From Leptogorgia sarmentosa (Eukaryota): 64,000 nucleotides of DNA. The notes under the pieces were generated by a model. The model was not told the DNA's origin, searched no databases, and saw only the letters and a program-made list of their open reading frames with translations. The stretch's first letter is position 1, and each line of letters opens with the position of its first letter. The position numbers and the translations under genes were made by a program. The stretch is from assembly GCA_964658305.1 (NCBI GenBank), contig OZ210884.1, forward strand, positions 2,666,001-2,730,000, given 5' to 3'. Of the stretch, positions 235 through 54,319 are shown piece after piece.

Positions 235-2098
235 GCGAAGTGGATTTTGGTCCAGAAGTCGAAGGCCAAGTGTGAGAACTCCTAGCGTTAGGATACCAAC
301 AATCCGAAAACCTGCTTTAAGGTAAATGAACATTTGAACAGACATGCATGTAGCTACACCCTATTTTCTAGAAATACATACATGCAGCAAAGGCAAAGCA
401 ACGTACATTATGCATTTTAATAAATACTTTCCTAAATTTTATAATTACATTTTCTGGCCAAAAAATACAGTAAAATATATAAAGCGGCTTTGGGGTCTAG
501 TTCCCCCAAATTCGAATTTACAGCAAAACTTGTGGATTGTTGTGTCTCACTTATTTGTCCAGCCTGGAAAAAATGCACATTCTGCCTTAAAACTACAGAA
601 AAACAAAAATAACTATATAAGCCTAAAAGCACTTTGATGATGAAAATTGTGGGGAAAGTATTATTCTTTTTGTAATTTTATTAATTTTGGTTCAGACGAT
701 CCAATTGGTGGTCTAGAAGAACGCCAACCCCCGTGAGGACACCCAGGGTCAGGAAACCGACTTCGAGGTAAGAAACATGGTGACTTTCCGAAACACCGTA
801 CAAAAATAATAGTACTTTAGTTTTCAGGGGATAAATGAATTCACGAATCTGATACAGATTTATTTATATTTGCGCGTCAGGCGTACAAGCTGGTGGTCTA
901 GACGAACTCCAACCAGTGTGAGGACACCAAAGGTTCGGAAACCCAGTTCCAGGTAACAAAAATCTCGAGCTCCTTTCAAAATACCAGCAAATAATTATGG
1001 TACAATTAAGGAATAGAAACCATGACTCAAAATGGCGGTGAAGTAACTTTGGATTCCCCCAAATTCGAATTTTCACCAAAAACCAGTGGTTTGTTGTGTC
1101 TTACTTATTTGTCAAGCCCGGAAAAAATGGATATCCTACCTTAACACTAAAGAAAAACAAAATAACTACATCATTACGCTAAAAGCTTACTTTGATGATG
1201 TAAAATGTTGGGAAAATATTATTTGTAAATTCATTCATTTTGGTTCAGACGTTCCAGTTGGTGGTCTAGAAGAACGCCATCCCCCGTGAGGACTCCCAGG
1301 GTGAGGAAACCGACTTCAAGGTAAGAAACATGGCGACTTTCCAAAACACCGTACAAAACTAATAGTACTTTAGTTTTCAGGGGATAAATAAATTCACGAT
1401 TCTAATACGGGTTTATTTACATTTGTGTGTCAGGCGTACAGGCTGGTTGTTTAGACGAACTCCAGCCAGTGTGAGGACACCAAAGGTTCGGAAACACAGT
1501 ACCAGGTAACAAAAATCTCAAGCTCCTTTCAAAATACCCAGCAAGTAATCATGGTGCAATAATAATATAGTTGTTAGGAAGAATAAAGGAATCACTTTAA
1601 TCAATAAACTCTATTCATTTTAATATGTTAGGCGTACAGGCTGGTTTTTTCGGCGAACTCCATCTAACGTCCGGACGCCAAGTACCAGGTAATAAATATT
1701 GGTTTGATGACTACTGTTTGGTATGAAATATTGTGCCAAAAAAGGATGAAAATTTTCACATTTTTCCAAGTAGAAAAGAAACAAGAAGCATGAACGAAAA
1801 CTTATTTTTAATTTCTTATTCATAAAGATACGCGACGTGATAAAGTTTTTTTTATTTTAATGGCTTTCATAAAATATTTTAACAACGATAGTTTTGTTTG
1901 TCATGTTTGTAATAACAGCATTACGTCGTTTACAACTAACTTATATTATATTTTAACTAACTCGTAAAGAATTACATGACATTTACAATAAGCTACTAAA
2001 GTTAATGTTTATAATATTATACGATGTTGAGGTGAATATTACTAATGTACAAATTCTTTTGCAGGTTTACAGGACCAAATCCAAATTCCAACAGAAAG
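235..2098 (+). CDS. Micro-exon array encoding cationic Arg/Ser/Thr/Pro/Trp-rich repeats; 5' end lies upstream of the window. Exons 235-321, 696-767, 881-952, 1249-1320, 1434-1505, 1632-1688, then probably 2065(or 2073)-2098
   Basis: Each of the six repeat exons has an AG acceptor and a GTAA donor, a length divisible by 3 (87,72,72,72,72,57 nt) and phase 2-2. Joined, they read open: RSGFWSRSRRPSVRTPSVRIPTIRKPALR / RSNWWSRRTPTPVRTPRVRKPTSR / RTSWWSRRTPTSVRTPKVRKPSSR / RSSWWSRRTPSPVRTPRVRKPTSR / RTGWLFRRTPASVRTPKVRKHSTR / RTGWFFRRTPSNVRTPSTR. There is no Asp or Glu in about 144 aa. Confidence 0.8.
500..1560. repeat. Tandem duplication of an approx. 553-bp two-exon unit
   Basis: Exons 696/881 and 1249/1434 are each offset by 553 bp, and the intron sequence is also repeated (e.g. 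CCCCCAAATTCGAATT near 523 and near 1056; GTAAGAAACATGG after both first exons). Confidence 0.85.
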
Positions 2099-2879
2099 GT
2101 AAATTTTTCGTCCGCTATATATCCATTATTTAAATTCAATTATGCTTAACTGCTATAAACCGCATTCAATAAATATTTTATATCTATTTTACACACAAAT
2201 CAGACTTCCGAATAAGGAAATGCAAATAATCTTTCCTTGAGAAAGACCTTTGCAGCATCTTTCCGATTTGGCACTCAATTCAGGGTAAATTAGTGTGACC
2301 TAATGAGGTTGTATGTTTGTCATCAATGCGCAATGTCGTTTTAAATTTTGAAATCCCTCAGACTCGTCAAAATAATCTTGGTATTTAACAATTTTCTTTT
2401 CAAATTTAACATATTTTCCAAAAGGTTTCTTTTCCTTCTTTTTATGATTTGATAAGGTGCAGAATGTAAACAAGCTGTTGAAAGGTAACGTATAGGTTAA
2501 ACTGTTCATAATATCACTGAATGAATGATCCACTGCAGCCACGTCGGATTTTATCCTTAAATATGATAATAGCAGGGCTCGCGAATGTTGTTATATAATC
2601 ACAGCCATAGACAATGACGGATTACTTGCTGCAGCGCCTGTAAGCTAAATTAAATTCGCGGACCTTGGAGGTTGGTTTTTCACAGGTATGCACGTTGTGA
2701 CATCCCGTGTTCTGGGACGTTCAAGTAGTCTATATTCAGACTTCGTGATCCAATGGAGCAACAATACCACTACTTAAATAGTTGAGGAGTCGTTTCTCAT
2801 TTAGAGAAAAGTCAAAAGCTGACGAAACCTTCAAAACCGATAACATTACGGAACTCCCAAAAGCGCGGGGTTTATTGAA

Positions 2880-3590
2880 TTTATTCTAGAAACACATACA
2901 TGCAGCAACCCCTCGCTCGCCTTACTAACGTACCTAGACTACATTCAACTTAGTGCAACTGCAACTATATCTAACAATATAAAGTACTGTAATAATTATT
3001 GTTATAATGATAATGCGGCAATTCAATTTTTTTGAATATTTTTTTAAAATAATTAAAGAAGTACAAAAAACTTTAGATTTTAACCTGAAACATACATGTC
3101 ACACTAATGTCATTAAATTTACATTTGATGTAAAATATTCGCATGAGACGTTTGAGAAACTATATTTTATTTTATGCCACTTTCATCTTTGAAATTAAAC
3201 CACTTTAAGCCAATATTCGTTCATAGTCCTGATATATCTAGTCCGTTAGCATTTTTAAATTAAAAGTCAGTCTTAAATTTACAAAACGTAAACTGAATTT
3301 CTCAAATTAAACTGCAAACAGAATGATTTTAGCTAAGCCTGTCATTCATATCAATACGTATATGTTTTGTATTTCACTGCATGATCGTTTCTCCTGGCTT
3401 TCCGTCTTTTTTTTCAGCATTAATGTATTCAAAAGTGTCTTTAAATTCCTGCAGCAATAGTTTTCGTCTTTGTTTTCGCCTTTTCAATGTCTTTAGTGTT
3501 CGCCTTTCATGATAGTCTGTCATAATTTTGAGATCAGCGATAGCCACCCTTCGACGACGACCCAAAATGGCGCTCAAACTTAGGAACTTC
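2880..3590. mobile_element. Dispersed repeat, unclassified non-autonomous element; inverted copy at approx. 11700-12435
   Basis: CTAGAAACACATACATGCAGCAACCCCTCGC (approx. 2886) is the reverse complement of approx. 12405-12435. CCACCCTTCGACGACGACCCAAAATGGCG (approx. 3544) is the reverse complement of approx. 11700-11735. Confidence 0.6.
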
Positions 3591-4307
3591 AGACTCCGCT
3601 ATGCTGCCATTTACTGGGGGTGGATCCATGATTTTTCGTACTGTACGTCAGGCAAAAATTTTGTTGCTAAACATTGGCAGGGGGGATGAGGAGGATGTTA
3701 TGGGGCGAGGGAATGTTAACTCTTTGTTGAGATAGTGGGAGGAAGCAAGTGAAATCTTATATGTTTTGATTTATAAAATTTGCAGGAAACGTCTGCTTCT
3801 GACAATGTCAGAATGACTATTGACTATGAAACATTTAAGGAATAGAAAACATTTCCCATGTTTACATCGAGTTATGTAAACACGAGTGCAAGTTTTGGTG
3901 AACGAGAAATGTGTTTGACAGTCTCCATAATTGATTTTTATAATACTTTGGAAAATAAATAACCAATTTCCCGAGTTATCGTTTAAGATATCGCAAGGTT
4001 AGTCTTGGTTTAATTGATACTAGAGGTCTCCATGGAATCAGAATGGGGACACTTCGATGGAATTATTCTAAAATTATTTATAAACTCATCCAGAATTACA
4101 ATTATGAAAGTTCGTTAGTCTTAAATAAATAGACATAATTGTATTGTATTTTTAATTAACAAAATTGTTGATGAAATTATACATATTCCAGTGAACAATC
4201 CTAATCCCGCTATACAAGCCATTTATTAATTACGCTAATGTTTATTGAAGGATATACTATAGCTAAGTTGGGGAAGTTAAAGATGTAGGAGCATAATCAA
4301 TTTCAAC

Positions 4308-4502
4308 ATTAATATCATTGAGTCAATCTCCTGGACGCTGATTGGCTAGAAAATTTCAACAACTGTGCGAATTAAAACGAAATTACACGGTTCTCGATGT
4401 ATTGATGAAAAATTGCACTTGTGTTTGTAGTTTATTTCGCCAAACACGCGTGCAATTTTCCATTAATACTTCGAGAACCGTGTAATTTCCTATACGAATC
4501 AG
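4308..4502 (+). repeat. Dispersed repeat; second copy at approx. 63200-63432
   Basis: ATTAATATCATTG..AGTCAAT.TCCTGGACGCTGATTGGCTA and GAACCGTGTAATTTCCTATAC are shared by both sites. Confidence 0.75.
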
Positions 4503-4566
4503 TAATTTACTTTGAAAATTAAGATATTTAATTAAATATTTTCTCTTCTGAAATTCTTTCATTTAG

Positions 4567-5093
4567 GAAAGACGATGTCTAAAACAATCGCGGATTTTGA
4601 GGGAATAGAGCCTAAGGTTTACAAAGATACCAAAGGCTTGCGAACCGTTGGTGTCGGCTTCAACATGGATCAAAAGAATGCTAAAACAACGTTTGAGAAA
4701 TACATACCTAAAACTGAAGTTTCCTTTGACGATGTTCGCCAAGGAAAAAAAAGTATAACCGAGAAGCAAGCCCTGAATCTTTTCCAAGGAACACTGAACG
4801 AAAAAATTCAGACAACGAAACGCATTTTTCCGAAATACGATAAATACCCAAAAGCCGTGAAGACGGCCCTCGTGAATGGAGTTTTCCGTGGTGAATTCAA
4901 AAAAAGTCATCAGACGGTCAAAGATATCAACAACGGTAAATGGGATAAGGTGCCGAACGAATATCTTGATCGAAAAGATTATCGCAACTCAAAACCTGGT
5001 ATAAATGGTGGCATTAAGACACGTATGGATTTTAACGCCAATATCTTCCGCGAATATGCAAAAGAATTGAAAAACCAAAAGAAAAATGGATAA
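4567..5093 (+). CDS. Phage-type (T4-like, GH24) lysozyme/muramidase, terminal exon; ATG-started ORF 4575-5093, 172 aa
   Basis: N-terminal FEGIEPKVYKDTKGLRTVGVG carries the canonical GH24 E-x8-D-x5-T catalytic motif followed by VGVG. The helical C-lobe includes ITEKQALNLF and KTALVNGVF. A strong polypyrimidine/AG acceptor (TTCTTTCATTTAG|G) ends at 4566. Confidence 0.85.
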
Positions 5094-8000
5094 CTGTTAA
5101 GTGTATATGAAATGACTGAAATCAAAAGGAAAAGCAAGAAGAATACTGGACATTGCCTCACCATTCATGACACTTGATTTATTAATTTTACATGGGTGGT
5201 TTAGTTTAGTTTAATTTAGTTTAGTTTAGATTAGAAAGATATTCTCGATCGTTGTATGTAATCAATGTTTGTTTAAAACTTTCGTTCATAATCAACACAA
5301 TATGTTAATAAAGATAAGGAAAAAAAACATGATAGAGTTGCCTGTCCGCTCATTTTTGTCAGCAATATTGCTCCGCATAATTGTGGTTGCAAGCAACTTC
5401 AGGCAAAACAATTCATTCAATATCCATGCTGGCAGCGAGATAGTGTTTATCAACGTTATGATAGTTTTAGGCCCCGTCCTCACAAGTGTGTTTTCAAATG
5501 TGTGCGCTTCCCGGTAAGACAGAAAACACATCAATCGATTCGGGTCCATACTACCGTTTTCGTAGCGTATTCGACTGTCCACACTAAAGCACTTGAACAC
5601 GCTCATCCGATGGTAAAGTGGCGTAAATCAGCAATTTACGTATGTTCGGTGTCTGCCATGTAAATGTAAAAGAGCTGATCAAACGATCTCAAATTTCATT
5701 TCTGCCTCTTATATGGGCTAAACTGTTTTGGCCCTAGCCAAAAGCCGTAAACGACATCTACGAGTGCATTTAGCGCAACAAACTAGCCTATTCGACCCCT
5801 TGCATTTTAAATCAGCCCATTTGAGCAAAGTAGCCCTAGACTTGGCTTAAAGCGATCGTTATAGTAAACGTTTCAGCGCTATAATTGTCATGATTATATT
5901 AGTTTTTATATTGGCATCGTTCAAAAATGGATTGAATCTTTACTTTGAATTGTTTCAGAACTTTGTGAGCTTGTACTGTGAATTCCAAATATAGCCATTT
6001 ATATAAATTTACGCATGATATATTGGCGCAGACTCGCAGAGGGTGCTACTTAAGCGTGATATGTAAATCGTGAGTTGCACCTCGCATTATATCGCAGCCA
6101 TATTTTTCAACTTCATATTATGTTGAATGCTTTACACAAAGAACACACTTTTTAATGAAAATATGCAGTATTTTTCAGATGGATTACATCAGCAATGAAT
6201 GCAATACTAAGGTGAGAATATGTTTATGCTTTATGTTTAATTAAATAATGTAAAAAATAATAAAATATTTCGTATGTTCTATTAATGAATTTTGAGCATG
6301 TGCGCCTGGTTGAAATTTGAATTTGGCGCGTCAAAATCACAGCTACGAATTAAGGCATCACTTGTGTACATTTATTAAGGTCTTAATTTCGTTTGACTTA
6401 GACTTATCTAGGATCGAAAGTCGGGCTTTAACATTGATTATTAGGCAAGTAGCTATATTACAGTTTCTCAGTTGCCTATTGGTTGAACATTATATTTTAC
6501 TAATAATAAAGGCATGACTCTGCTTGGGCGTTTGAGAAAATATAATTTTTAATGACTGCATGACTTGAAATCGGTGCCTGTATACTCGCTTCTGTGATTA
6601 GTTGCTTCTGCCATAAATCGTCATACTTATAATATGAATGAATTGGTATACTATTTACACGAATTCGAATTATTACTTGTGCTGTATTGGTAGCCTGATC
6701 CTATTGTATTTTAGGACCAAAACTTTATACTGCAAGTCTTATGATCTAAAAATATTACAATTCTTTCAAAGCGTATAAAACATATCTGTTGTGGAAATTA
6801 ATATATTTTTTTATTTTTATTTCTGTGGTCTGTACCATGATATACATGGGCGTACCCCAGTGTTTGCCTGGCTGTTGGGCAGAACAATTTTATGTTCTGC
6901 TTACCAGCTTAATATGTTTATGAACATTTTTATGAGTCCTAAACACGAAGTGCAGGTGCGAAGATTTTGTGTAGGAACAGACCTGCACAGATTAGAAATA
7001 TCATTCTTGATATTTTTCTATATATAATATATTTCGCACATAAGTATGCGTATAGTCTTAAGCCTTTCAATTGAATATTGATATAAAAGCCTACCGATGC
7101 ATCCGATTGTAAAAGCATCTAAGAAGTGTTAGAAATTGCGCAGTTTAATATGCACCCTTTGAATGACTAGGATTTAGCGCGCCTCCACACATCAAGTCAG
7201 ACTGTCGTTGTCGACCCGAAACACATGAGTAATTCCTGGAAAAAGATCGGCGCGAGAAAAAAAGTAGCAGGACAGAATATCGGTGACTTCGTAAAGAAGG
7301 GAGGAAAAGATTACTCTCTCTTTGGCGGCAATTGTCACAATGCATCCGAAAAACTCAAGAATAGAGGTTAACGTCGTTGGAACTAAGGTGTATTGAGAAT
7401 GGACGGATGACACGTGGTGTCGCAGGATAATGAGCTACATGCATTATTTGAGAAATCACTCGGGTAATGCTCTATCAGCCCAAAACATAAAAATGTCGAC
7501 AGAGGTTCAATTCAATAGGAACTATATTCATTTTACTCATAAATTATAATGAAGAAATTATTTCTGAATTGGCTCGTTTTGACCATTTTCAACCAAGACA
7601 GAGACGAGGGTCCTATTAAATTCTGTCAAGCTATATTCACGATCATAGCGGACTGCAAAGTCATTATTAATTATCATGGAGGGTTTTACTTGTTGTATGC
7701 ATGCAGGAGTCTACACAGATTACAAAAATATGGCCAATTGTTATGAAAGCGAACAGTAGGCAATGCTTCCTGAACACAGAGACAGACACTCCCACAAAGG
7801 GCCCCTCAGATGCGAGAAATGCTAAAAAAAGGCAATAAAATACAGAGAAACGACTACGGATGGACACACTAAACAGGTTTGTCGTTACTACAAGTTTGTT
7901 GTTATTTGGTTTGCCCAACATAAACTGCTGGGTATTATGAAGAGAAAATTTCAACTTGAAGTAGACAACGTTTTTCCCCCTTGGATTTTCACCAACATCA

Positions 8001-15301: not shown

Positions 15302-16183
15302 TTATTGCTCAGATCGAGATTCCGTCAGTCGAGATATTTTCAAGCTTTTGAAAACTTTCAGTCCTTCCTTACGTAAAACTTTGTCCTTCCAAAAAAAGAT
15401 TAAACAATTGAATGTTGAATTCATAGACGCTATTGTCATACACCAGATTGCTGTCAGATTAGAACTATCCAAATTAAGCATTTTATACGTCGAATTCATC
15501 CTCAGTCCAACGTAGACGAACACAGGAATGGACAACGTCACATAACAAGCGACTGCCAGCAAACAGCTTGAAACATTTTTTAACGAAAAAGTATTTTCAA
15601 CGTCAGTACATGTTTGGTTACCTCTACGACTTTTTCTTACTACCATGAGTAGTTTATAGTTGAGAAATAACATTGGAGGAGAAACAATAACAAAAAAAAT
15701 CAAAACATGCACTTGGTATAAAATGACTGAGTCGTTGACAGATATTGATGTCAGGACCACCTCGATGAACAATAATACTGCAAAAATGGTAAAAAGTCTT
15801 CTCTTCGTTACCGATGTTCGATGAAAGATGGGATGTGATGTCGCCAAATATCGATCAAAATTCATCACCAAAAGAGCAATCAACGAAGAAGCAGGAAATA
15901 TATTTGTTGACCTTGAGAAGAAATACGGCCAGCTCGCATTTAAACCAAACTTCCCAGTCATGAACAACATCGCTGTTACAACAGCGAATGAATTTTTAGC
16001 AATGACTCCAAGCAGGTCGCAACACGACAAAACCATTATCATGAAATAGCACAACTTCGTGCGAATCCGCATTGATCTCCAAAAACATATGATAACGACG
16101 GAGTTTAAACATACTCCTGAGAAAAAGAAGAGTAGGTTGGTCAACAATATGAATATCAGGTTGACGAGAAAAGAAGATTCCAT
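15302..16183 (-). CDS. Intronless rhodopsin-like (class A) orphan GPCR, 293 aa
   Basis: Seven hydrophobic segments; TM1 LNS, TM2 LSCCDLL, TM3 MNFDRYLA (DRY motif), TM6 LSIP, TM7 NSTFNCLIFFWKDKVLRKE (degenerate NPxxY plus helix 8). Confidence 0.92.
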   Translation of the reverse strand: MESSFLVNLIFILLTNLLFFFSGVCLNSVVIICFWRSMRIRTKLCYFMIMVLSCCDLLGVIAKNSFAVVTAMLFMTGKFGLNASWPYFFSRSTNIFPASSLIALLVMNFDRYLATSHPIFHRTSVTKRRLFTIFAVLLFIEVVLTSISVNDSVILYQVHVLIFFVIVSPPMLFLNYKLLMVVRKSRRGNQTCTDVENTFSLKNVSSCLLAVACYVTLSIPVFVYVGLRMNSTYKMLNLDSSNLTAIWCMTIASMNSTFNCLIFFWKDKVLRKEGLKVFKSLKISRLTESRSEQ

Positions 16184-19100
16184 CTTTCAACAACTTTTTC
16201 TGAAGACTCGAACGTCAAAATAAGATTGTTGCTAAGGGCATGGAGAAGTTAAAGTGGGTGCGACTGACATGTCTAAGTGGATTTTCTATATTACAATAAA
16301 ATAGAATAATTAAGTTACTGGCCCAAAGAACACAGCACGTGGAAAGCATCGCGCATGGTAGTCGAGTATGATAAATATACCTTTGTTATTCTTGGGAGAA
16401 AATTTCAGCGCAGCATGCAGTGTCGTATTATTTTCCTTGTTGAGGAAAACTTAGCTTTTTCCGAACACTAGAATGCATTTGTGTTGACAAATCGAAAATG
16501 ACTTCCCGTCTCACAACTTCCCATGATGTGCACTCGAAAGTTGGGTTCAAAACGTCAGAATTCGATTTATCACTTCCTATAGCCCAACATATTTATGCTT
16601 AACGGAAAGGTTTAGTATATGTGACTTGCCATTTTCATTCGAATTTTGTGTTATTAAACTATTAAATGAATATAATAGCCTCCTTTTCAAGGAACTTATT
16701 GGTAAATTATAATTATACCCTTAAATAACGCTATTGTGAAGACTGCACGACGATCGAGTATGTGCGATTGATGTCGTTAAGTGGTGAAATGTCAATGATA
16801 CTGGAGTATATGTATATAACTCTCATGGTGTCTTAACTTGCCGTGTTTTTCATATAGCTAATGTTTTATTTGGAAAACTGAGTTTTTTTTATAGATAAAT
16901 ATCGATATGATGCCTCCAATGACAAAGCCCTGTTTGAGCGACTTGAGCACGAAAATGATCACGATATTACGACATACGTCATCATTAGTCATCCTTTTGA
17001 CAATGTTCCAATATTTTTCGTGTATACCCGAGAAACACAAGCACGACTTCAGCAAAATGGCAGGAAAGCTTCATGTTATTGTTAAAGTTTTAAAAGGGCA
17101 AAGTGACGAAGAATTAAATCGAAGTGCTCATGTCACAATACTGTCACAACTCAATGCGTTATCGTCTCTTTATTATAATAATAGGCACGCACGATGCGTG
17201 CATGCGTCTACGTTGATGCCTTGCATTTGAAATTCGCCGTATGATCAGTATATATAATACAAATATAATACAAGTATAATCCCACGAAATAGTTAATGAG
17301 AACCCCGTTTAGAAATCGCTTTACAGAATCTTGGAAATCTCTCCTTGGAAATTAGTCCTTCGAACGAACGTTAGAACAACGCACACTTGCGAAACACGCC
17401 CAAGTAAATCACATACGTCACGAGTTAACTTGCTGAAAGTTCGATACATCGTTTACCTTGAGAGCTCGTGACGTAAAAATACGTCATATTCGTTGTTGAA
17501 ACACAGCCAGCCAGAAATTTTACGCTTACATAGCCTCTACGTTGCTTAGCAACGTAGACGCAAAAATCAAAGCCCAACATAATGCTATATAAGTAGAGCC
17601 ATTAAAAACACAGCTTTAAATTTAAAAAAAAATTACACAGTGACGTTTCGTCTTAACTGAAGACATCTTTAGACAAAATTGATTATATTGCGTATACAAG
17701 TAGAAATTTAACTAACGAGCTAAGGAACCGGTCATTATTTATGGCAGAGGTGAGAGCTGGAGAGAAAATTGTGCGGTAGCCTTTTAACCAGCATGTCTGG
17801 CGTGGGGTAAGAGAAAATCTGAGAAGAATATATGCGTGGGATGAAATATTTCCATGCAATGTTCACCAGTCGGCACCAACTTCCTTGCACTACATTGGAA
17901 CTTGTTCCAGCCTGAATGATTACCCCAGTTATTTTTCAAAGTATTATTTGCAATATTGCTAATGCTCCATTAATATTATTTACAATCTGTTAAAAGTAAA
18001 TTATTCTTTGTATACGAGATGTACTGAAAAAGAAATCGGAATGAATAGTCGTCTCGCCCAACAATCCAGTGTTAGATCTCCGCCTGTAAAAATGCAGGGC
18101 TTCAAGCGGAATTATATTGAATTGCCTTTCCATCCCCTATTTTAGTCGTGGACGATTGTTCAATATATTAAAGGACGCCTGCCTTCTCTATTGCTTAGGA
18201 ACTGTATGCGCTAAAGTTTAGGAAAATGTTCGCTAGATTTTTACATACATCGATATCATAAATTAATTACATTAAACATACAAAACCAAATGGTGCTTGC
18301 CAGAATACAGCAGGATAGCTCAGAATTGAACAATCGATGTCTAAATAAAGATTATTAATATTTACAATCAAGCAAAACTAATATTATTTGGTTGCCACGT
18401 TTGGTCAAGAGTTTTTTTTCCTTCGCAATCAACTTAGTTGCTCGGAAACATAAGTCATTTCCGAGTATCGATAAGTGCACAATTGATTCGCCCTATACAG
18501 GGACTTCTTTTAAGTATTTTCCCGTTGGCGGGGAGCATTGTATGAAAATGCAACGCCAGAAGGGTCTGGGTTGGGGTTAGGTAAAGATCAAACAAGTCGG
18601 TGCCAGTATAAAATCCATATCTTCTCATGCACCACCGTTTAATATCTCCTTTATATAGATATAAATTCGATTCCTAATTCGATTATTTCAAATTGATGTC
18701 AGGAATCTGAATTGATGAAGAATTACAATTGATCAAGACCACTTCCAAGGAAGTTTGAACGAAAGCCAGTTTTTCTCGTGCACTTAATTCTGTTCTATAA
18801 CCTTATTCCCGAGTTCCAATTCGAATTATAATATGAGAAGGTATATTGTAGTATACACATGTTTACTTTCCGGTTAAGTTGGACTTAAAAGACGAAAGCT
18901 GTAAAATCATATAGAATTTTTGTTTTCGTACGAGGAAACCTGCACATGCATGATACAATTAGCTCATTCCTTGTTATGCAATATCCTATTGGGAGCGGGG
19001 TTGCGTTTTAATTTTTTTAAATCGTTTAAAACACCAAGATATTGCGATCTATATTTTGCAACATCAATTTCATACATTTCTTGTTTTGCAGTATTTATAT

Positions 19101-21719: not shown

Positions 21720-24330
21720 ACCTTCTCTCGAATCGTCGACGACGTCAACAATGTATTTAATTCGAAGTAATTTACATTGCCTCAAATAGCAACGAACAAA
21801 TTAACAATCACGCAACTAGCTACAAGTTATTATTATACTGTCTGCCTAATATGCCAAAAATTCCTATCCCTTCCATGGGATCCTTATTTATTAAATAATA
21901 GATCAATTTCTGAAGCCTTTATATTAATTGAACAAGCCGACCAAAAATAGAGTCAAATCTCTGCATTGACCATTTTTGAGCACGTGTCTTACCAATTTGC
22001 CCAACTCTAGTTCATATATAAAGCATTCCTACCTCCTTATAATTCCTCTATAGCATCTTGTTTCGCCATCCTGTTTTATTCTTGAGCCAAAGAGCGAACG
22101 TTTTAGCCCCGTACGTGCATGGGTAGTAATACCGCTCGGCTTTTTTACCCCCGTAAAGACGGAATAGTGGAGTCTGTGATAGCAATTAGAAGAAAAGTCG
22201 ATAATGCTAACGATTTATAATTAAAATTTGCATAGCTGAACCACATTGTTTGGATGCCTTCGTCACTGTTTATATATATCCTCAAAAATCAATCAACGCC
22301 TTCCTTTTGTGACAACCAATTTCAAAGCGAAGTCTCTATCTCTTTATAAGAGTAATATCGAAAATAAAGCATGTTAATATCCAAAGTAAAACAATTGTTG
22401 CTATTTGCTCTGTTTTCTGGAACAATATTCTTCATAGGCCTACATCTATGGCTAAATCCAGATTGGAAGGGACATTATCGCATAACACCTACGAATGAGG
22501 AATCAACCGAAATCCACTTGTTAACCAACTACCCTCTGATGACGGAAAAGCCCTGGAATGAAAATCAAACAGATGCTGACAGGTCCCGATTATGGCAAAG
22601 ACAGCTGGAATTAGAGGAAACCTTACAGAGAAATCTTAACCATACTTTTGTTAAAACTGTACATCTGCTCGTAAATCAACCGTCGGCTCAGCAAAGATTA
22701 AAGAACTTGCCATTCTACAATAAGGATAAAATACTTGTACATCCCATTCATGCGCTACCTAAATATAGGGACTTTTTGGACTACGCAAATGAAAGACTTC
22801 AAAACAAGGTTGTCGCAATGCTAAACATGGATATTTACCTTGGAGAAGGATTCGACAAATTAAATAAAACGTTGATGGTAAAACGGAATATATCATACGC
22901 GTTGACCCGCAGTGGACGGCAGGAGCAAAGGTGTAATATGGCAGGAAAGCGTGGATATTGTAATCAAGGAAGATATATTGGTTCGCACGATGCATATGTA
23001 TTTGTCGTTACGCAACGCATAGCTGAGTCCACTTTGTCTGAGTTGAATTATAACATGAATGTTATGGGGGCAGAAAATGTCTTTATTTGGGTTTTAAAAC
23101 AACGAATGAAAATGAAAGTTCTCAATCCTTGCAAGTACCTAAGAACCTATCACAACCACTGTGTCGATATACATGGTAGTGTTAGACCAAGGATAAACTG
23201 GGGCGGCAAAAGTGGTACTGCCCCTTTCAGCGGCTTATATAAATGAGATGCGATACATAAAATGAATATCGAACACCGCATTCATCTAATTCTTTGTTAA
23301 GTAGATTGTAAATTTAATAAGCAATTCTCGTAGATGTACTGTTGCGCTCTAATAGCAAAAACTCTTATCACAAAACGTTAGTCAAACGAGATTTAGATGG
23401 TTGACCATTAAATATAAGCAATTTAATAATTAGTCATAGAGACGGTTATTTCTAAAACAACATGTTTTAGTAGAATCTATAGTTTATTAAAAGGTGATTA
23501 ATTCATTGATGTTGTCCTTATTTCTGCAGCATTCATTATAAGCTTGTTTTACAACCATAGTTGTCGCTGCAATTTTAGCGTTTTGAGTAATAAAATGAAT
23601 ACATAAGTATACCTGGACATTCCTAAGTGTTTAACCATACGAGCTTAAAACATGCGATTGCATTTCGAGAGGAAATTTTAAAATTCATAGAGAATAGAAG
23701 GCGAAATGGTTGCCTTGATATTCGCTGGCGTTACAAATGGATTTCCTACACTTCTTCGATCAAAACTTTGAATAGAGATCTGACAAAGAGAAGATGTATA
23801 CGCATGTTGCGTAGGCGTTGAGGTTTTTTATTTGTTCACAATGACTTTGCTGCCTATAAATTCTAAGATATTTATCGACGTAAAGAACTTGAGAGTTTAA
23901 ATAAAACATTTTATGCTGACTTACAGCCACCGTTAGCCGAAAATTCGTAGCTGCTTTAAAGCCAATCAGAAAGTGGAAATTTGGCTTAGAGAATTCAACT
24001 GGTGTAATTTCCAGAAGGAATTTGAAAATTGGTAAAGTGGCAGGTCACGATTTTGGCTTGATATTCGCTGCCGTAGGAGGAATTCATATCAAGTGAAATT
24101 AATTGGTACCTGTGAGTCTAGCTCAAACAAGTTCAGTTCTTAATAATAAAATAATTCTCTTCATTAGAAATTACATAGACGTGTCCCAGTGCTAATTTCT
24201 GGCGACTTCTTCTGAAAACATATTATTGAAGTGTTACTATAGTGTCGCTAAAATACGCTTGTTGTAAACATGGCATTATAAATTTACAATTTGGAACAGG
24301 ATTCCACTCAATTCTTCAAAATTCTGAGTG
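21720..24330 (+). repeat. Segmental duplication paired with approx. 58765-61150; partial copies of the flanks at approx. 19235-19750, 20350-20530, 24555-24650, 25065-25530
   Basis: Near-identical non-coding flanks on both sides of the two ORFs, e.g. GTCGACGAC..CAACAATGTATTTAATTCGAAGTAATTTACATTGCC and GCTGCCTATAAATTCTAAGATATTTATCGACG. Confidence 0.9.
22371..23246 (+). CDS. Intronless type-II membrane protein, putative GT-A-like glycosyltransferase (copy 1), 291 aa
   Basis: Short basic N-tail plus a hydrophobic anchor (LLLFALFSGTIFFIGLHLWL), a stem, then motifs RQLELEETLQRNL, VAMLNMDIY (NxD), YALTR, GSHDAYVF, GAEN, LNPC, HNH. An intact paralog lies at 59452. The enzymatic function is inferred. 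Confidence 0.75.
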   Translation: MLISKVKQLLLFALFSGTIFFIGLHLWLNPDWKGHYRITPTNEESTEIHLLTNYPLMTEKPWNENQTDADRSRLWQRQLELEETLQRNLNHTFVKTVHLLVNQPSAQQRLKNLPFYNKDKILVHPIHALPKYRDFLDYANERLQNKVVAMLNMDIYLGEGFDKLNKTLMVKRNISYALTRSGRQEQRCNMAGKRGYCNQGRYIGSHDAYVFVVTQRIAESTLSELNYNMNVMGAENVFIWVLKQRMKMKVLNPCKYLRTYHNHCVDIHGSVRPRINWGGKSGTAPFSGLYK

Positions 24331-25759
24331 TGATTGACATTTCTCATTGAATATTTTGAAATTAGGTGCAGGAATTAAAAGAAACCCTTTATTTTACCCG
24401 GATCATGATTGTGTATATGCCACAAACAAAAAACATCTTAATTATGGACATAAATGATAAGAATTAATGCCGAAAGTTGCATTGAAAATTTTCCTTCCGT
24501 TGCATGGTAGATAATTCATTTTCACAGGCAACTGCGTTAGTTGATATATAATTAATCCTAAGATATTTATCGACGTCAAGGATTTGTGAGTTTAAATAAA
24601 ACATTTTATGCTGACTAACAGCAACCCTCATCAGAAAATTCGTAGCAGATAATTCATTGTCAGAGGCTACTGCGTTAGTTGATATATAATTAATCCTAAT
24701 TTTCTATGTTTTTGTCGATATAGGACATCCACACACATGATTAGATGTTGTATTCAATTCATTCAATAAACGCTTTAGCGTTTGGCCTCAATTGACTGTT
24801 AACAATAATAAAGCATGCTGTTCAAGAAATGGAGCCCATATAATTTGCATAATTATATACTATTACCGGATGTTTTCAATAATTGAAGTGTTTTTAAGTA
24901 TTGTGGAATTTATATTTTCTTTTATGTGAAAAGGCTGCAAGCAACAAAATCTCATCAATTCTCAATTGAAGCAATGAAGAACTGAACAACAAAGTTTTAA
25001 CACCCATTAAGCTCACGCCAATTAAACAATCGCCGAGATTATCTTTCAATTTTTGGAACTTGGGTCTGCCTATAAATTATAAGATATGTGAAGGATTTGA
25101 GAGTTTAAATAAAACATTTTATGCTGACTTACAGCAACCCTCATCCGAAAATTCGTAGCTGGTTTAAAGCCAATCATAAAGTGGAAATTTGGCTTAGAGC
25201 ATCCAACTGGTGTAATTTCCAGAAGGAATTTGAAAATTGGTAAAGTGGCAGGTCACGATTTGGCTTGATATTCGATGCCGTAGGAGGAATTCATATCAAG
25301 TGAAATTAATTGACACCCGTGAGTCTGGCTGAAACAAGTTCAGTTCTTAATAATAAAATGATTATCTTCATTAGAAATTACATAGACGTGTCCTAGTGCT
25401 AATTTCTGGCGATTTCTTCTGAAAACATATTATTGAAGTCTTAGTGTCGCTTAACTACGCTTGTTGTAAACATGGCATTATAATTTTACAATTTGGAACA
25501 GGATTCCACTCAATTCTTCAAAATTCTGAGTTAAAAAATTTCAATTTCAATGATTGCCCAACAGAGTGGATGTGAAACAGTTGGTTCTATTTTCGTTAGT
25601 TCGAGAAGGATATATTAATTGTTTCAACTGGATGATATTTAACAACTATTGAATGAGGTCGAGCAGGATATGAGGAATTATAAAGGCCGAGGTTTGTGTT
25701 ATTTGCCGAAGCCAAAGGCTGAAGCAAATAACTCAAAGTGAGGCTTTAATAAGCATATC

Positions 25760-26854
25760 CATGGCCAAAAATCTCGGTCATTTGAGCCTGCGCGCAAAAA
25801 GCGGTTGCACGGAAAATTCAAATTAATGAATTTAAAAATGTATATAGAGTTGCATAGAAAATAGAACTTAACCGGAAAATAAAGCGAAAACAAATCAGAA
25901 ATTTGAACTTGCCAAAGTGGACAGTTATTGCTGCACATGCATGGAAAGCGCTTGTAAAAATACTTTTTAAAAATCATAAAACCGTACCTTTCCCTTTGAC
26001 ATTTTTCGGTTAGCGATTTCCAAGTGTGTTGAATGCCTGAAGATGTTCCATAATTTGGTGAAATTAGAGTTAAATCCAATGTTACAAGCGAAGTACCCAA
26101 CGAACTATTCGCGAAATAGACTTTGCCAAAGTTGTTTGCCAAAATATAGTTAACGTTCAACTCGAGTTCAAAAATATAAACAATATCCATGAAATCGAAC
26201 CTTTCCCTTTTGCAATTGAATCTGGTTCATATTTCCGCAGTTAATCTGAAAAAATTATCTACAAAACAAATATTTTTTTAAAGACTTTAAACAACAACTT
26301 TGACTGAATATGCAGGAAACATGCAACCTTTTTTGGCGTGATTCATTACGAATTGTTACAATCTGCGTGATAAACTGCGGAAATATGAACCAGATTCAAT
26401 TGCAAAAGGGAAAGGTTCGATTTCATGGATATTGTTTATATTTTTGAACTCGAGTTGAACGTTAACTATATTTTGGCAAACAACTTTGGCAAAGTCTATT
26501 TCGCGAATAGTTCGTTGGGTACTTCGCTTGTAACATTGGATTTAACTCTAATTTCACCAAATTATGGAACATCTTCAGGCATTTAACACACTTGGAAATC
26601 GCTAACCGAAAAATGTCAAAGGGAAAGGTACGGTTTTATGATTTTTAAAAAGTATTTTTACAAGCGCTTTCCATGCATGTGCAGCAATAACTGTCCACTT
26701 TGGCAAGTTCAAATTTCTGATTTGTTTTCTCTTTATTTTCCGGTTACGTTCTATTTTCTATGCAACTCTATATACATTTTTAAATTCATTAATTTGAATT
26801 TTCCGTGCAACCGCTTTTTGCGCGCAGGCTCAAATGACCGAGATTTTGGCCATG
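25760..26854. repeat. Near-perfect long inverted repeat (fold-back): arms approx. 25760-26246 and 26370-26854, spacer approx. 120 bp
   Basis: CATGGCCAAAAATCTCGGTCATTTGAGCC pairs with GGCTCAAATGACCGAGATTTTGGCCATG. The ORF track shows an almost identical peptide on opposite strands (25699-26190 minus, 26638-26964 plus). Confidence 0.92.
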
Positions 26855-29639
26855 TTACAAAAACCGAGAGCGAGAGTGGTCTTCGCATGGAAGCCGGTGC
26901 AGAAAAAGAAACAATTTTTACTGATCATGATTGTGTATGTGCCACAAACAAAGAAAATATCTGAATGCAAACATGAAATTACAATAATGGACGGAAATCT
27001 TAAAAATTAAAGTTGTAGCATATGTTGCACTATTAACATTGACTTGTTTTGCCTTTGAACTGCGAGTGCAAAAATCAATAATTGTTCCATTATTTATTTG
27101 TATTTTTACGGACATAGGGCAAACGATTGCACTTCAAACAATAATCTTTATTCTCAGGAAGCCACTTGTATATTCCCGCGTTTGGCGTAAGCAGCATAAG
27201 GTCATAATGTCATATAGTTTTCAATACATGACCAGTTATAATTACGCCGTATTGTCGAATATGTGTGTTACCAAACGGACATGCATGGACAGCACGAACA
27301 ACAACCGAATGGTAGTATCACCGTGCTTTCAATTGATGCAAACCTTCTGTTACTATAACGTGAAATCACGCAAAGATTTCGGGGATTTTCTTCTCAAAAC
27401 ATGCTAAATTTAATGTACAACCAAAGTTTGAATAATACCTACATTGTAATTAACGGTAATCTTCGGTAAATAAATTCGGCGAAAAAATTGGTTGTTTCTG
27501 CGGAAATATGACAAAGGTCATAAAGGGAGAGCATCGATATGAATCGATATTAATATCTAAATAGCTCAGAAGGCCTCTTGCCTTTGAAACGGTTGATAGT
27601 TTTCGACATGTCGTAGGATGGATAAATTTCAAGTGGATTTCTTTGGCAGCGTAAGACTTACACGTTGTTAAAAAGAACAGAATTTTAAATTTTTGAACAT
27701 TAGCCTAGCTATAGCTACATTGCGTATTTCTATATTATTTCTATTTCATATAATAATTCATTTTACTACGGGTGAACCGTCAAATTTTCCCACAATCCAA
27801 AATATAAGTATATCTATGCATGCACATCGCCTTACTGAGCATTCACAAGACGATTTATTGTTCCTTTTTGAACGAAGATGCATCCGGAAATAATTGATCA
27901 GCTCGCGCCCAACAAAACACGATGTTATCCTCGACCTCGTTAATAGTTGATAAATAATACGAGCTTTATACAAATAAAATGGCACATAGTCCTCTAGCTA
28001 CTGTAACTAATCCGGAGTCATTCCGATCACAACTGGGGCTTTAAATACAAATGAATATTTTGAATTATAGTGTAATATATTGGCTATATATTCCGCATGA
28101 TTTTAATACCAAAACGTGTTTGGCTATTTGCCCATGTGGACAAATGTCCACATTCCAAGTTTTGAATTCATTCCAATAGCGAAGAGCTCTTTGTTTTTGA
28201 ATAATGATGAGTCAATGAGACAAAACATAGCATAATAAAATTAATATGACTGTAATCAAAGCTATGTTCTCCACTATGTAACAGCAGTGCGTTTAAACGT
28301 TAGTTAAGATCTGATTTCAAAAATGGAGAGGACAAACATTTATCTCTCCTCATAGCGCGTGCATTACTATGATTCCGTTCATTTTAATTAATATATGGTT
28401 TTACAAAGCCCCCTTTGTCAATAATATTTTAGCTATATTAGTATAATTACAATAATTACGTTATATTATATAATTATATATATTAGACCAAACCTTAAAC
28501 GTTTGTGTTTTTTTTTTCATAGCCAGCTGCTGTGATTTCTCGTGACGCAAATTTTATAATAACTGTAGGTAGCCTAAAGTTTATAAATTATTTAACTTTT
28601 AAATTTTTGCCAGCGTTTCATAAATGATCAGAATTTACTTTTATCAGTTGTCAAAAAAAAATATGCAATCAAGATAATGGTTGATGAATTAATGGACAGG
28701 GGGAAAAATCTTTATTATCGATAATATGATATGTATAGCTAGCGCAACAACAAACAGCAATTAATTGCTGAACTTTGGCCTATAAATATGACAGAAAGAA
28801 TTATGAAATCGTTATAATTGTTTCAACGATAATACCCTCAATATCATGCAAAAATAACATTCTCCTTCGAAAATGCTTGGGGAAATTTGAGACGGAATAA
28901 TGTCAATAAAAATGCAAAAATCGCTCAAAAACGATGTTGTCTAAACGTCATCGCCATGCATGGGTATATAACTATGATCATCGAGCCATTGCAGAGTCAT
29001 TAAAGGAACTATAAATCTGATCGCGAGAGCCAATGCCAAGCTAAGCACTAATCTCTTTAGCAACTTAAAAAAACAAACAATATTTCTTTGCGGAACTTTG
29101 AGCAACTTCAGAAAAATACTGAAAATTTCTCAAATTCAAAAAATGACGAGGATTTTACAATAATTAAATGTTTTCAAGTTAATTATTAATAGTACCAAAT
29201 AATGACTATGTACTAATAAACGTTGAAGCAATAAACGCAATGTTCCTTTCTCATCAGAAGGACGATATGTGGCTGAAGGAGTTTTTGGCGTGTGATTGAA
29301 CACAATAAGCACTGATCGTTATGATGATTGAGCTATGGCAGGGGCGTACCTGAGAAAATGATCCGATTGTGTGGGTTAGCGCACGCAAACTCTCTGGCAA
29401 TCTAGAAAAGCAAAATTACAGGATGTTTACAATAATTGAAATGTTTTTTCCAAGTAAATTATCACATATTACAAACAATGTCTTTGTATCGGAAAGTGTT
29501 GAAGCAACAAAATCTTTCAGTTTCCAGCTGTTATGAAGAGAACTTTACATGCACAGCTTGATTACCTATTTTGGCCTCGCGTCAATTATTAATTAATAAC
29601 CATCTGTAAGAACCTTTTAGTTCTTTCAATTCCCCACTG

Positions 29640-47100: not shown

Positions 47101-50100
47101 TGAGATCCGTTTTATTCCAGGCGCAATCGTTTTCCGCGCGTTTACCTTACAGAAATTCATTTGATCGGCATAAAATTGAAATGTTCTGTATTCATAGCAC
47201 AAGAAATGGCTTTGAAACAGTAAAAAAACAGCAAATTCATTTCTCTATCGCATCGCAAGTTCCTACGTTCTCTTTCGACAACATGTTGTTCACTTGTTCG
47301 CTACTTTCAACCACGCGAGAATGTCACGCAGCTGAACTCGCGTGAAGTTATCTCCAGACACGCGTGCCTCCATGCAAAATTTTTAATTTATTTCCCGTTA
47401 ATATTAAGGTAGCCTTCCATATATTGTTCAATGATTGAGACCAAATTGCACTGCACTCAGTATATACCGACATATCTGTCCGTTTCAGCATGATCGTACA
47501 ACATGCTGAACTGGGTGTCTTTTAGTGCACTGGGATTTAGGAATTGACCATTATACAATGAAGACTTGTTGACAAATATTGAAATTTTTCTTCCAGGAGC
47601 AGAAAATATTACATGTACACCAACACAATCTACGTCAGGAAAAACTTCACCTTCACCAAAATCACCACCAGCTATACCAAAACCATTTAAAAAACCAAAA
47701 GGTACGAGCTCGAATGAAAAATAGGAACATTAGGCATGCGTAATAATCACTTAGCTACTGACTGAGATTGAAAAATATCAAACTGAGGTCTTGCTGTATT
47801 AACCGTGCGATAGGGAGGTTACTACAGCTAGACCGATGTTTGATGTTTTCCCGTACAGAACGAACAGTCGAAGTCAGTAGTTTATTATATTTTATTTTAT
47901 GGCTTTACGAAGCTCTCTACTGATTGGTTGACAAGCAGTCCGTAAAAACCCAATTCCGGACCGTTGTCCGTATTTTCTGTATCTCGACCGGTGTCCCAGA
48001 TGTCGTTTATCTGGAGGGAAATTTCGCTTTACAAATAGAAAAGATTTTCGCTTCTTCATTTTCCAATTTAATATTTACAGATAATAACAATTTCAAATAT
48101 CCAAATTGTTTTTATGGAAGATGTATGTCTACTGTACTATTATCCAGCGAAACTGATGATAGCTGATCTACTCAGGGCGAAAGGCATATTAATGCTCTAA
48201 GACTCAACTCAGCCATGTAATAAACGGATTATTGACCTCGCTTGCTCGCTCTCTACTGTTATATAATAAATATCAGACCTCTTTTTTTTTCATTGACCTC
48301 GCTACCTCCCCCGCTCGGTCCATACTAAAAAACCTCGGTCTGAAATTTCACAGTACAGACTGCACGCTCGGTCAATAAACTTTATTATTATATGGCTTTT
48401 CAAAATTCTCTATTCTGATTGGTCGACAAGCGGTCCGTAAAAACCCATATCCGGACCGTGGTCCGTATTTTCCGTACCTGGACCGGTGTCCGGGATGTCG
48501 TTTATCTGGCGGGAAATTTCGCTTCGCAAACAGAAACGATTTTTCCTTTTAAATTTTCCAATTTAAAATTTACAGATGAAAATTTCAAACAACCAAATTG
48601 TTTCAGATTGAGCATGTATATCTACCATATACTGTTACCCAGTGAAACTGATGATAGCCGATTTGATTCGCGCGAAAAGCACATGCTCAAATTCTCAATT
48701 CAGCCATATTTATTGACCTCGCTTGTTCGGTCTGTACTGTAAAACATCAGACCTCAGTTTTTTGCATTTACCTCGCTCCTTCGTCGCTCGGTCCATACTA
48801 AAAACCTCGGTCTGATATTTCACAGTATAGACCTCACGCTCGGTCAATAACCCTTTATTATTATATGGCTTTTCAAAATTCTCTATTCTGATTGGTCGAA
48901 AAGCGGTCCGTAAAAACCCATATCCGGACCGTGGTCCGTATTTTCCGTATCTGGACCGGTGTCCCGGATGTCGTTTATCTGGCGGGAAATTTCGCTTCGC
49001 AAACAGAACAGATTTTTGCTTTTTAATTTTCCAATTTAAGATAAAAATTTCGAACAACCAAATTGTTTTAAATTGAGCATGTATGTCTACCGTATACTGT
49101 TACCTAGTGAAACTGATGATAGCCGATTAAATTCGGGCGAAAAGCATATGCTAAAATACTCAATTCAGCCATATAATAAACAGTTTATTGACCTCGCTTG
49201 TTCGGTCTGTACTGTGAAATATCAGACCTCAGTTTTTTGCATTGACCTCGCTCCTTCGTCGCTCGGTCCATACTAAAAAACCTCGGTCTGATATTTCACA
49301 GTACAGACCGAACAAGCGAGGTCAATAACCCTTTAATATGGCATATGTGCGTTTTGAAATGAGCTTAGGCGATATACAGGAATAAACCAAATATTATCAT
49401 ACTGGGGCCGGTTGTATAAATCTCTTAACTACCCGTTTCGCAATTAAAATGCGGGTTTCTGATTGGTCAATTTTTATCATTTATAGACCCGGAGCGAGGG
49501 GGATTCGGCGTAATATTTCCCGAAGTGATGATATTTTCCTAGGGCTCTGCCCCGAGGAAAATATCATCACTGAGGGAAATATCGCCGAATCCCCCGAGCG
49601 GAGGGTCTATAAATGATATATTATACCGAACGAAACATTTTTGCATAATTGTTTTAAAGAAGTCTATTTATTTCTTCATTCGAGTCTTGCTCGCCCGCCA
49701 TTTTGCATAGATATGCTAAGCGCGTGTTGCCCACGCGTCACGCGTGAGCGTGGGATACTATAATATTCCACGGCGGATTTGCCGTGGGATATTATAGTAT
49801 CCCACGCTGGATTGCGAAATCAGGAATTTGAGTGAAATACCGTAAAAAATCACACTATCACGTGGTACAAATGCTGTTTTTTCATTGGACAATTTGAATT
49901 TGAGGTATAATATTAATTTTTATCAACCTCTTGCATTTTCCAGGTGCCGGTATAGATTGCACTTGCCATCCAGTACTTGGGGTTTTTAAAATAACCAATC
50001 GAAAGAAAGGATTTACATGCACGTCAAAGTTTGTCTATGCAAACAACGAATGTAAACCTAATCCACCCTGTGTTCCTATTAACCCAAAGCAGATCAATGT

Positions 50101-53100: not shown

Positions 53101-54147
53101 GGATGCTAAATCGATGACTCTGCTGTAAGCCAGTCGTGTGATGGATGATAGTTGAGTCCTTGTCACAGCTATAAGCAAGCAAGTTGAGATTTTTAGTTTT
53201 GTTAGAAAATACTTGTCAAGTGTAAACATTTTGAGGAGTGGTAAATGATAATTCCGCGACTCATTCCCTGGGGCGGCGCCAATTTGTAGAGGCTGGGAGG
53301 GGTGTACGGTGAACACAGAGGACGTGATATTTCCACGGAGATTTTGCAGCATACATACCTCCAAAAAAAATTGCTATTTCTGTGGTCTCTAAAAGCTATT
53401 TTTTACCATATTAGACAGGTGTGTTGGAAATTCAAAAGCAACAAATCCGAGTGTTGCCCGAAAAGGTCGTGCAGGCAGCTAAACATGCACCCATTGTTAG
53501 ATTATATAACTAGATGCACCTTTTACGTCATTCCAGTATTTCACAAAAGCTTTGTGTTCTTAGCTAATCGAATATCTCCAATGTTTATATGTTGATATGA
53601 ACAAGCATTTTGAATAGTCGTACCCTCACCAACCCCATTTTTCCGGCTTACGATTTAGATCAATCTGAAAGTTGGCTTCAGTCCAGGCGAGAAACCAGGC
53701 ATTAATTGAAGGGGGGACAAAAATATTCGTGTTTTCTCCTTATGATTTCGTTTCCCATGCAGTAAATAAAAAAACTGATTGCAAACATCACTTACGCTTC
53801 AGATATGAACTCGTATTGCGGTGTATCATAAGGCTTGCTACTTGGTGTTGCACGGCATGTTTCGGCTCGCACAACGATGTCGCTGTTGCTGGTGGTTAAA
53901 CCATACTGGATGTGAATACGATCCTCGAAACTTTTAAAAGCAGGATATTTCTCTGAAGTGCTAGAGAGGAAACCGGCATCGGGATAGGTTCCCAAGTTGA
54001 CTGTAAAGTTTCCCAGGTCGCCTGAAATAAAAAATATTGCGATAAACATAAAATTGCGGCAACATAAAAGGCAGTTTTATACTTCAAATAATTTGAAGAT
54101 CCACTCTGTAATGTTTCTGTAGGGTAACTGTAAATGTAGGTCTAGTC

Positions 54148-54319
54148 CAGAGGCCGCGGAAGATCGATAATTGGGGGGGGGGGGGGGGGGGGGGTGCACA
54201 TATTCATATATTCGTGATGTGCATTACTGATTTCCTTTGAAATCAATTGTTTTCAAGGTCTTTGAACACGAATATATGAATATGTGCCCTCCCCAATTAT
54301 CGATCTTCCGCGGCCCCTG
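54148..54319. mobile_element. hAT-like MITE
   Basis: TIRs CAGAGGCCGCGGAAGATCGATAATTGGGG / CCCCAATTATCGATCTTCCGCGGCCCCTG; 8-bp flanking repeat GTCTAGTC / CTCTAGTC (7/8 match). Confidence 0.8.

Follow-up and report, generated by a model that had tools for sequence, protein, structure and literature searches.

An octocoral gene splices a phage-type (GH24) lysozyme domain to a cationic Arg/Trp/Pro repeat tail

The question raised by this locus is whether a short, phage-like lysozyme reading frame in a gorgonian assembly belongs to the animal and, if it does, what protein it encodes, where its enzyme domain came from, and what that protein might do. The frame lies in the stretch of Leptogorgia sarmentosa DNA analyzed here, 64,000 nucleotides of contig OZ210884.1 (positions 2,666,001 to 2,730,000), hereafter called the window. 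A preliminary description of this DNA read the frame as a domesticated lysozyme and a candidate for horizontal gene transfer, perhaps recruited for microbiome control or digestion.

Results

The lysozyme ORF extends from an ATG at 4575 to a stop at 5093 and encodes 172 amino acids without interruption, in agreement with the intron-free domain of the preliminary description. The domain matches the Pfam profile PF00959 (Phage_lysozyme) with 35.7 bits against a gathering cut-off of 22.3 (E = 1.2e-8), which bears out the assignment to GH24. The triad reported earlier (E9-x8-D18-x5-T24) is intact; E9, D18, and T24 align gap-free with residues 11, 20, and 26 of T4 lysozyme, where E11, D20, and T26 form the catalytic triad. 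Taken alone, the triad pattern is weak evidence. A six-frame translation of the window contains it three times, and the identification therefore rests on the profile and the fold; the fuller pattern EG-x7-D-x5-T-x-G-x-G occurs once in the same six frames.

The T4-lysozyme fold expected by the preliminary description was predicted by AlphaFold (mean pLDDT of 94.9 from a 52-row alignment). Among the Foldseek matches listed, T4 lysozyme entries were recovered with a probability of 1.0 and TM-scores of 0.55–0.67, and the remaining matches are presumably T4 lysozyme fusion constructs, judging from their titles. The likeness to T4 lysozyme and GH24 (PF00959) thus comprises the fold and the spacing of the catalytic Glu, Asp, and Thr; the differences are that identity in the structural alignment is only 20–22% and that the window gene is spliced, is animal, and carries a long N-terminal tail. 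Sequence and model together identify the domain as a GH24 phage-type lysozyme with a predicted T4-lysozyme fold. It is basic, as noted before (net charge +16, pI 9.85). Of the 21 rows in the octocoral clade described below, 20 retain the triad and one has a gap at this place. The domain would be expected to act as a muramidase on peptidoglycan.

Assembled sequencing contigs revealed that this ORF is not a gene in itself. In contigs from four of the eight runs examined (X2, X4, X8, and X10, belonging to two studies), upstream exons are joined to the lysozyme via GT..AG introns; the GH24 lysozyme constitutes the terminal exon of a spliced host gene in which eight coding mini-exons precede it (235–2484). 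These runs are not recorded as RNA; we infer an RNA origin of the contigs because the introns are precisely removed. Run X4 contains all eight GT..AG joints, from exon 235–321 through to 4567 onward. Run X10 contains seven of the eight together with one skip (952 to 1632), and X2 and X8 each have at least six among those listed. Positions 235 and 4567 lie 494 nt apart in the contigs of X2 and X8, the exact sum of the eight upstream exons. None of the joints is among those listed for the four other runs (X1, X5, X14, and X15); X14 and X15, which cover a small share of the window, contribute repeats and 168–177-nt pieces of the lysozyme domain only. The skip of two repeat exons in the X10 contig could stem from an allele that carries fewer of them, from repeats collapsed during assembly, or from alternative splicing. 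The DNA-like runs X1 and X5 have joints that skip ~2.5 kb (386–2931) with short sides of 21–26 bases, probably owing to a shared short repeat.

All exons lie on the forward strand. The first one within the window, 235..321 (87 nt, phase 2 out), encodes an Arg/Pro/Trp repeat unit and is joined to 696 in X2, X8, X4, and X10; more of the gene lies upstream of base 1. The X2 and X8 contigs extend past the window at their 5' ends by ~274 and ~70 nt, respectively, and the gene start is therefore outside it. Five internal exons with symmetric 2-2 phase follow, four of 72 nt and one of 57 nt. Exon 696..767 (24 amino acids) carries a cationic W-W-S-R-R repeat, and 881..952 is likewise a cationic repeat, both placed by the spliced contigs and the translation. 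Exon 1249..1320 duplicates 696–767, as seen from the contigs and a direct repeat. Exon 1434..1505 duplicates 881–952; its joints are 1320 to 1434 in X4 and X10 and 1505 to 1632 in X4, and the exon sum fits the contig offsets. The last of the five, 1632..1688, also taken from spliced contigs, is a shortened cationic repeat of the repeat family D2. Two coding micro-exons, both with joints in X2, X8, X4, and X10, lead to the enzyme: 2065..2098 (34 nt, phase 2-0) encodes an Asn/Pro linker, and 2457..2484 (28 nt, phase 0-1) a short basic helix ahead of the enzyme domain, whose equivalent is helix 216–221 in the model of the related locus L001. The joined frame is open across the exons, and the alternative two frames contain 22 and 17 stops.

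The last intron, 2485..4566 (2082 nt, GT..AG), is defined by its joint and is full of high-copy host repeats, visible as depth peaks in the DNA-like runs. The eukaryotic splice acceptor of the preliminary description is genuine: its AG ends at 4566 and is used, 2484 being joined to 4567 in the four runs with spliced contigs. Among the DNA-like contigs listed, none spans this acceptor with 31 bases on both sides. Host repeats had been reported on both sides of the domain. They are there, with high-copy interspersed repeats upstream at about 2880–2930, 3460–3600, 3830–3915, and 4300–4505 and a (GTTTA)7 microsatellite downstream at 5199–5234, but the upstream ones lie inside the gene's own last intron, and the eight coding exons beyond them had been missed. 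An inverted-repeat element in this intron (4379–4489) has a copy at 63191–63435. The terminal coding exon, 4567..5093, contains the GH24 domain and an internal Met at 4575 that is conserved among homologs; it likely marks the place where translation began in the gene as captured, which was then intronless. A probable 3' UTR extends over 5094..5312 and includes the microsatellite; the spliced contigs reach to 5173–5191, and the poly(A) site is placed by AATAAA/ATTAAA at 5307–5312, the only such signal within 500 nt of the stop.

The product is therefore different from the lone 172-residue lysozyme assumed at the outset: it is a longer cationic fusion with the lysozyme as its C-terminal domain. 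In frame, the eight upstream exons encode at least 167 residues of Arg/Trp/Pro repeats with a net charge of +51 (24% Arg, 13% Pro, 5.4% Trp, and zero Asp, Glu, or Cys). Each of the five internal repeat exons contains one W-[WLF]-[SF]-R-R motif. A direct repeat (669–968 and 1222–1521, 300 nt with 91% identity at a 553-nt spacing) includes introns and shows that a two-exon unit was duplicated recently. The tail is predicted to be disordered.

L001, one of 12 loci from a metagenome scan, is an intron-free gene of 395 amino acids that consists of a hydrophobic N-terminal helix (peak hydropathy of 3.5), a 204-residue tail with a net charge of +70, a short linker, and a GH24 domain. Its domain is 82% identical to that of the window, and the tail motifs and the short linker are common to both. 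In the AlphaFold model of L001 the N-terminal helix is confident, the tail has a pLDDT of about 40–45 (mostly <50), and the domain is mostly >90. In the comparison of the window gene with L001, the domain gave a dN/dS of 0.125/1.08 and the tail, from an uncertain alignment between repeats, one of 0.30/1.12; the ratio for the domain was about 0.12 against L001 and 0.10 against L002. Both domain and tail are under purifying selection. L002, a locus of the assembly that contains L001, holds at its positions 330–890 a paralog of the short type with 65% identity. An in-frame stop immediately precedes the ATG of this paralog, and the AG found two bases ahead of the ATG could represent a junction in phase 1, as in the window gene; the paralog may lack a tail or may have a further exon upstream. 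Purifying selection and splicing with host exons are what a domesticated host gene would show.

The part outside the domain varies among relatives. Most domains of the tail-bearing type have net charges of +16 to +20 and those of the short paralog type −1 to +7. The close relative P0006 has an acidic extension in place of the cationic tail. Short or near-neutral proteins (net −1 to +7) also appear to be frequent among the close relatives, so that the tail is not needed family-wide. Proteins of Mercenaria mercenaria begin with a signal-like start followed by W-W-x-R-R/Pro repeats ahead of GH24. The sponge protein P0308 has an acidic N-terminal part, and that of Owenia lacks an N-terminal extension, its Cys-rich part being C-terminal. 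P0179 combines a signal-like start with Cys-rich repeats resembling the rusticalin type and then GH24 of the window's subfamily; it groups with Mercenaria at 99/93 in the IQ-TREE analysis. A fused homolog of greater length was not present among 265 candidates, which is weak evidence, since L001 exists. The ESM Atlas gave no usable match for the signal and tail of P0306, and the only Pfam match, to Extensin_1, was sub-threshold (26.5 versus 105 bits) and was regarded as compositional.

A word-index search returned 23 homologs with 57–98% identity among 43 candidates. The only one of these with a species name, and the nearest such relative, is from the octocoral Paramuricea clavata (63% identity). 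HMMER recovered 1456 proteins at E up to 0.001, the best of which beyond the octocoral cluster are ~30–55% identical. Taxon names were looked up for 30 clusters, 16 of them among the 149 non-octocoral HMMER rows; named members include Pacearchaeota, the annelid Owenia fusiformis, the venerid clam Mercenaria mercenaria (40–44% identity), and, via a cluster member, the homoscleromorph sponge Corticium candelabrum. A viral scan gave 94 relatives, of which 80 were kept (28–42% identity); cultured phages are represented by five records with at most 32%. A scan of GTDB by two patterns yielded four distant loci only (30–31%), and PHROGs contained zero families for P0001 at 1e-5. Two proteins of the freshwater sponge Ephydatia muelleri, P0294 and P0311, are GH24 with a signal-like start, lie elsewhere in the tree, and likely form a further separate animal GH24 lineage.

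Because the non-animal relatives are mostly viral or metagenomic proteins with some archaeal ones, a foreign origin of the GH24 domain is likely from the sequences compared. To this extent the horizontal acquisition proposed before stands. A single event confined to one lineage is not supported: the members from sponge, annelid, and clam point either to a domain acquired long ago and lost many times or to more than one transfer, and not to one recent lineage-specific event. Broad vertical descent among animals, which the preliminary description had set against a transfer, is partly what is seen, given these members and the fit of a single animal clade.

How often the domain was captured is addressed by the trees. 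In a FastTree phylogeny of 268 rows, phage-like rows surround the octocoral clade (0.968) at a node with a support of 0.934, and the other animal rows group elsewhere (0.969). This topology speaks for an octocoral capture of its own from phage, with virion-protein-type lysozymes as the source; the sponge, annelid, and clam genes would then have a different origin, and the similar tails would be convergent. The C-terminal lobe points the same way, being closest to the phage-like rows P0076, P0084, P0106, and P0094 (47–48% mean identity), but P0119 and the animal rows are the nearest to the N-lobe. An IQ-TREE analysis (LG+C20) was run on 61 of the 268 rows: 13 from the octocoral clade, seven other animal-type (two of the seven without a species name), and 41 others picked by distance or at random, with Ephydatia P0294 left out. 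It recovered the octocoral clade at 100/90 and placed all animal rows together with P0119 and P0193 at 56/89, the bootstrap not having settled. When octocorals were constrained to group with 10 phage-like rows, the log-likelihood was 40 units worse than for the free tree, a grouping that the AU test did not reject (p-AU of 0.089); when all 20 animal rows were constrained together, it was 3.35 units better (p-AU of 0.565). Under LG+G4 with the long row P0193 removed, the all-animal split received 50 and, with P0119 included, 80. Phe29, too, is common to the octocoral (20 of 21) and the other animal-type rows (10 of 10) and is present in 28 of 236 rows elsewhere.

The trees thus slightly favor a single animal clade, which fits at least as well as separate transfers. 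By our judgement, one old capture followed by losses has about an even chance of being correct, a separate octocoral capture is a serious but less probable alternative, and transfer between animals is unlikely.

The intron-free domain and its nearest non-animal relatives, which are viral or metagenomic, could also suggest contaminating DNA from bacteria or phages, or a piece of an inserted prophage. The spliced contigs, in which the domain is joined to eight host exons in two studies, refute this, and we give it practically no weight. The stretch is present in 13 runs with one organism label from four studies, and no phage record exceeds 32% identity. The GC content of the lysozyme gene (0.39; GC3 of 0.41) is that of host genes (0.37–0.39 and 0.39–0.42). 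Of eight window ORFs scanned, four had a Pfam match, and the neighbors carry 7tm_1, ZP-N, ZP-C, and DAN domains, which identify the window as animal DNA. The earlier judgement against contamination was correct; this is a genuine spliced animal gene among neighbors with animal domains.

These neighbors include an intron-free rhodopsin-family GPCR ORF with 7tm_1 (15302–16186, reverse strand), exons of a ZP-domain membrane protein (51526–55260, reverse strand; ZP-N at 54787–55260, ZP-C at 52673–53215, and a transmembrane-like segment at 51526–51846), and an exon with a DAN/cystine-knot domain (62746–63078, reverse strand). Two paralogous intron-free ORFs of ~290 amino acids, 37 kb apart on the forward strand (22368–23246 and 59449–60324), have an N-terminal hydrophobic segment and no Pfam match; our impression is of glycosyltransferase-like proteins with a type II membrane topology. 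Two ORFs on opposite strands (25699–26226, reverse, and 26587–26964, forward) have a long part of their translations nearly identical and mark an inverted duplication, and 47898–49342 holds three 473-nt tandem units with 83% identity.

Discussion

Animal lysozymes of the GH24 family have a precedent in the bivalve co-opted phage lysozymes (BCPL; Ren et al. 2017), described in the part of PMC5303276 available to us as phage-derived GH24 genes that contain introns, include fusions, and encode lytic enzymes. Like the window gene, they have a likely phage origin, have gained introns, have been duplicated, and have become fused with other domains. The hosts of BCPL, however, are (heteroconch) bivalves, whereas the nearest named homolog of the window gene is from an octocoral, at 63%, with clams at 40–44%, and the available text makes no mention of a cationic repeat tail (PMC5303276). 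BCPL are represented here by their primers, which, read by eye, encode F-G-I-G-H and A-F-N-L-G; the window family has G-V-G-F-N and F-R-G-E. Because these motifs are unlike each other, the window family is probably a second animal GH24 lineage distinct from BCPL that is also present in a clam. Its distinguishing features relative to known co-opted phage lysozymes are the cationic repeat tail and the range across phyla.

Octocorals also have g-type lysozymes. These genes are reported from the soft corals Xenia and Dendronephthya, and, as in the present case, the g-type lysozymes of soft corals and placozoans are patchy in animals and have a proposed prokaryotic origin, as far as the sections available show (PMC11576321, PMC12855814). 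They differ in being GH23, whereas the window gene is GH24. Rusticalin-like proteins resemble the window protein in that they come from marine invertebrates and have repeats N-terminal to a phage-type hydrolase of the cell wall, according to the portions available (PMC6339383, PMC7379824); two supplement rows of the 25 in PMC7379824 are both fungal. Their repeats are Cys-rich and their enzyme is an M15 peptidase, whereas the tail described here is without Cys and its enzyme belongs to PF00959. P0179 bridges the two types, with Cys-rich repeats and GH24 in one protein. A report of an octocoral GH24 or of a GH24-cationic tail fusion was not among the top-ranked matches of our literature search, which had subscription journals outside its scope, and the available parts of PMC11896702 and PMC13342648 contain nothing on the window gene. 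PMC11576321 mentions, in the part available, unpublished non-conventional cnidarian lysozymes, so others may already have seen this family.

We lean, by a little more than even, toward a reading in which the octocoral spliced gene, with its GH24 domain and cationic tail, encodes a likely secreted antibacterial protein whose tail acts on envelopes and whose enzyme acts on peptidoglycan. A signal peptide encoded upstream of the window, as L001 suggests, would direct the precursor to secretion. Arg/Trp cationic peptides in general bind anionic envelopes and loosen the outer membrane. The Arg/Trp tail may likewise bind anionic envelope polymers and loosen the outer membrane, either attached or after trimming at basic sites, and the GH24 domain would then hydrolyze peptidoglycan. 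Marine ionic strength weakens cationic peptides. As to how the gene arose, the domain would derive from an old capture from a phage or prokaryote, and the tail may have grown by accretion of exons, symmetric phase-2 units having been duplicated in tandem. A bivalve phage-type lysozyme is bacteriolytic, and lysozyme-like activity is on record for gorgonians, both according to the parts of the papers available (PMC5303276, PMC5880021).

The 22 dibasic sites in the window part of the protein mean that the fusion may be cut apart or its tail trimmed as a pro-region. A polyprotein, from which ~24-residue Arg/Trp antimicrobial peptides are cut at basic sites and freed alongside the lysozyme, is possible, though we doubt it. 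Every repeat exon starts and ends at an Arg-Arg junction, and the predicted disorder would leave the tail accessible to cutting. One R-x-[KR]-R site, the furin consensus, occurs in the window part and three occur in L001, but Mercenaria P0307 has none. Dibasic pairs are found inside the repeats too, and cleavage at every such pair would break up the units themselves. Acidic spacers usually flank peptides released from polyprotein precursors, and the tail has none. Alternatively, the tail could be a non-antimicrobial pro-region or anchor, serving granule packaging or binding to mucus or skeletal matrix, with the enzyme alone acting in digestion or general defense. The variable N-terminal parts (acidic in P0006 and sponge P0308, Cys-rich in P0179, absent in Owenia) are compatible with this, but every repeat contains the W-W-x-R-R motif, as do the clam proteins, and most tail-bearing-type domains are far more basic than the short type, as expected for targeting to anionic surfaces. 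We therefore consider a pro-region or anchor rather unlikely and retain the secreted fusion as the preferred reading.

The closest architectural counterpart is artificial. Artilysins are engineered fusions of polycationic peptides with endolysins that pass the outer membrane, as described in the section available (PMC4161244). The likeness is one of architecture, a polycationic segment in one chain with a phage-type peptidoglycan hydrolase (+51 in the window tail, +70 in L001); the difference is that this fusion is natural and that its tail comprises 170–200 residues of Arg/Trp/Pro repeats versus a nonapeptide. A broader proposition would be an unrecognized ancient GH24 animal family, captured once before the sponge/cnidarian/bilaterian split and patchily kept, with octocoral and clam members being natural Artilysins whose Arg/Trp membrane-permeabilizing repeats arose by tandem exon duplication. 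We regard this proposition as speculative and improbable as a whole.

A 2026 paper states, in its available part, that early-branching animals are without lysozyme subfamilies beyond the g-type, bar one report of a sponge i-type (PMC12855814). A conserved spliced GH24 gene in octocorals and a sponge would correct this g-type-only view, and the family would supply a candidate enzyme for the lysozyme-like activity of gorgonians. The architecture is what engineers built so that phage lysins kill Gram-negative bacteria, and it is a testable natural design of relevance to coral disease defense and lysin engineering. The gene would also illustrate how a captured intronless gene gains a secretory and targeting front end through exon accretion.
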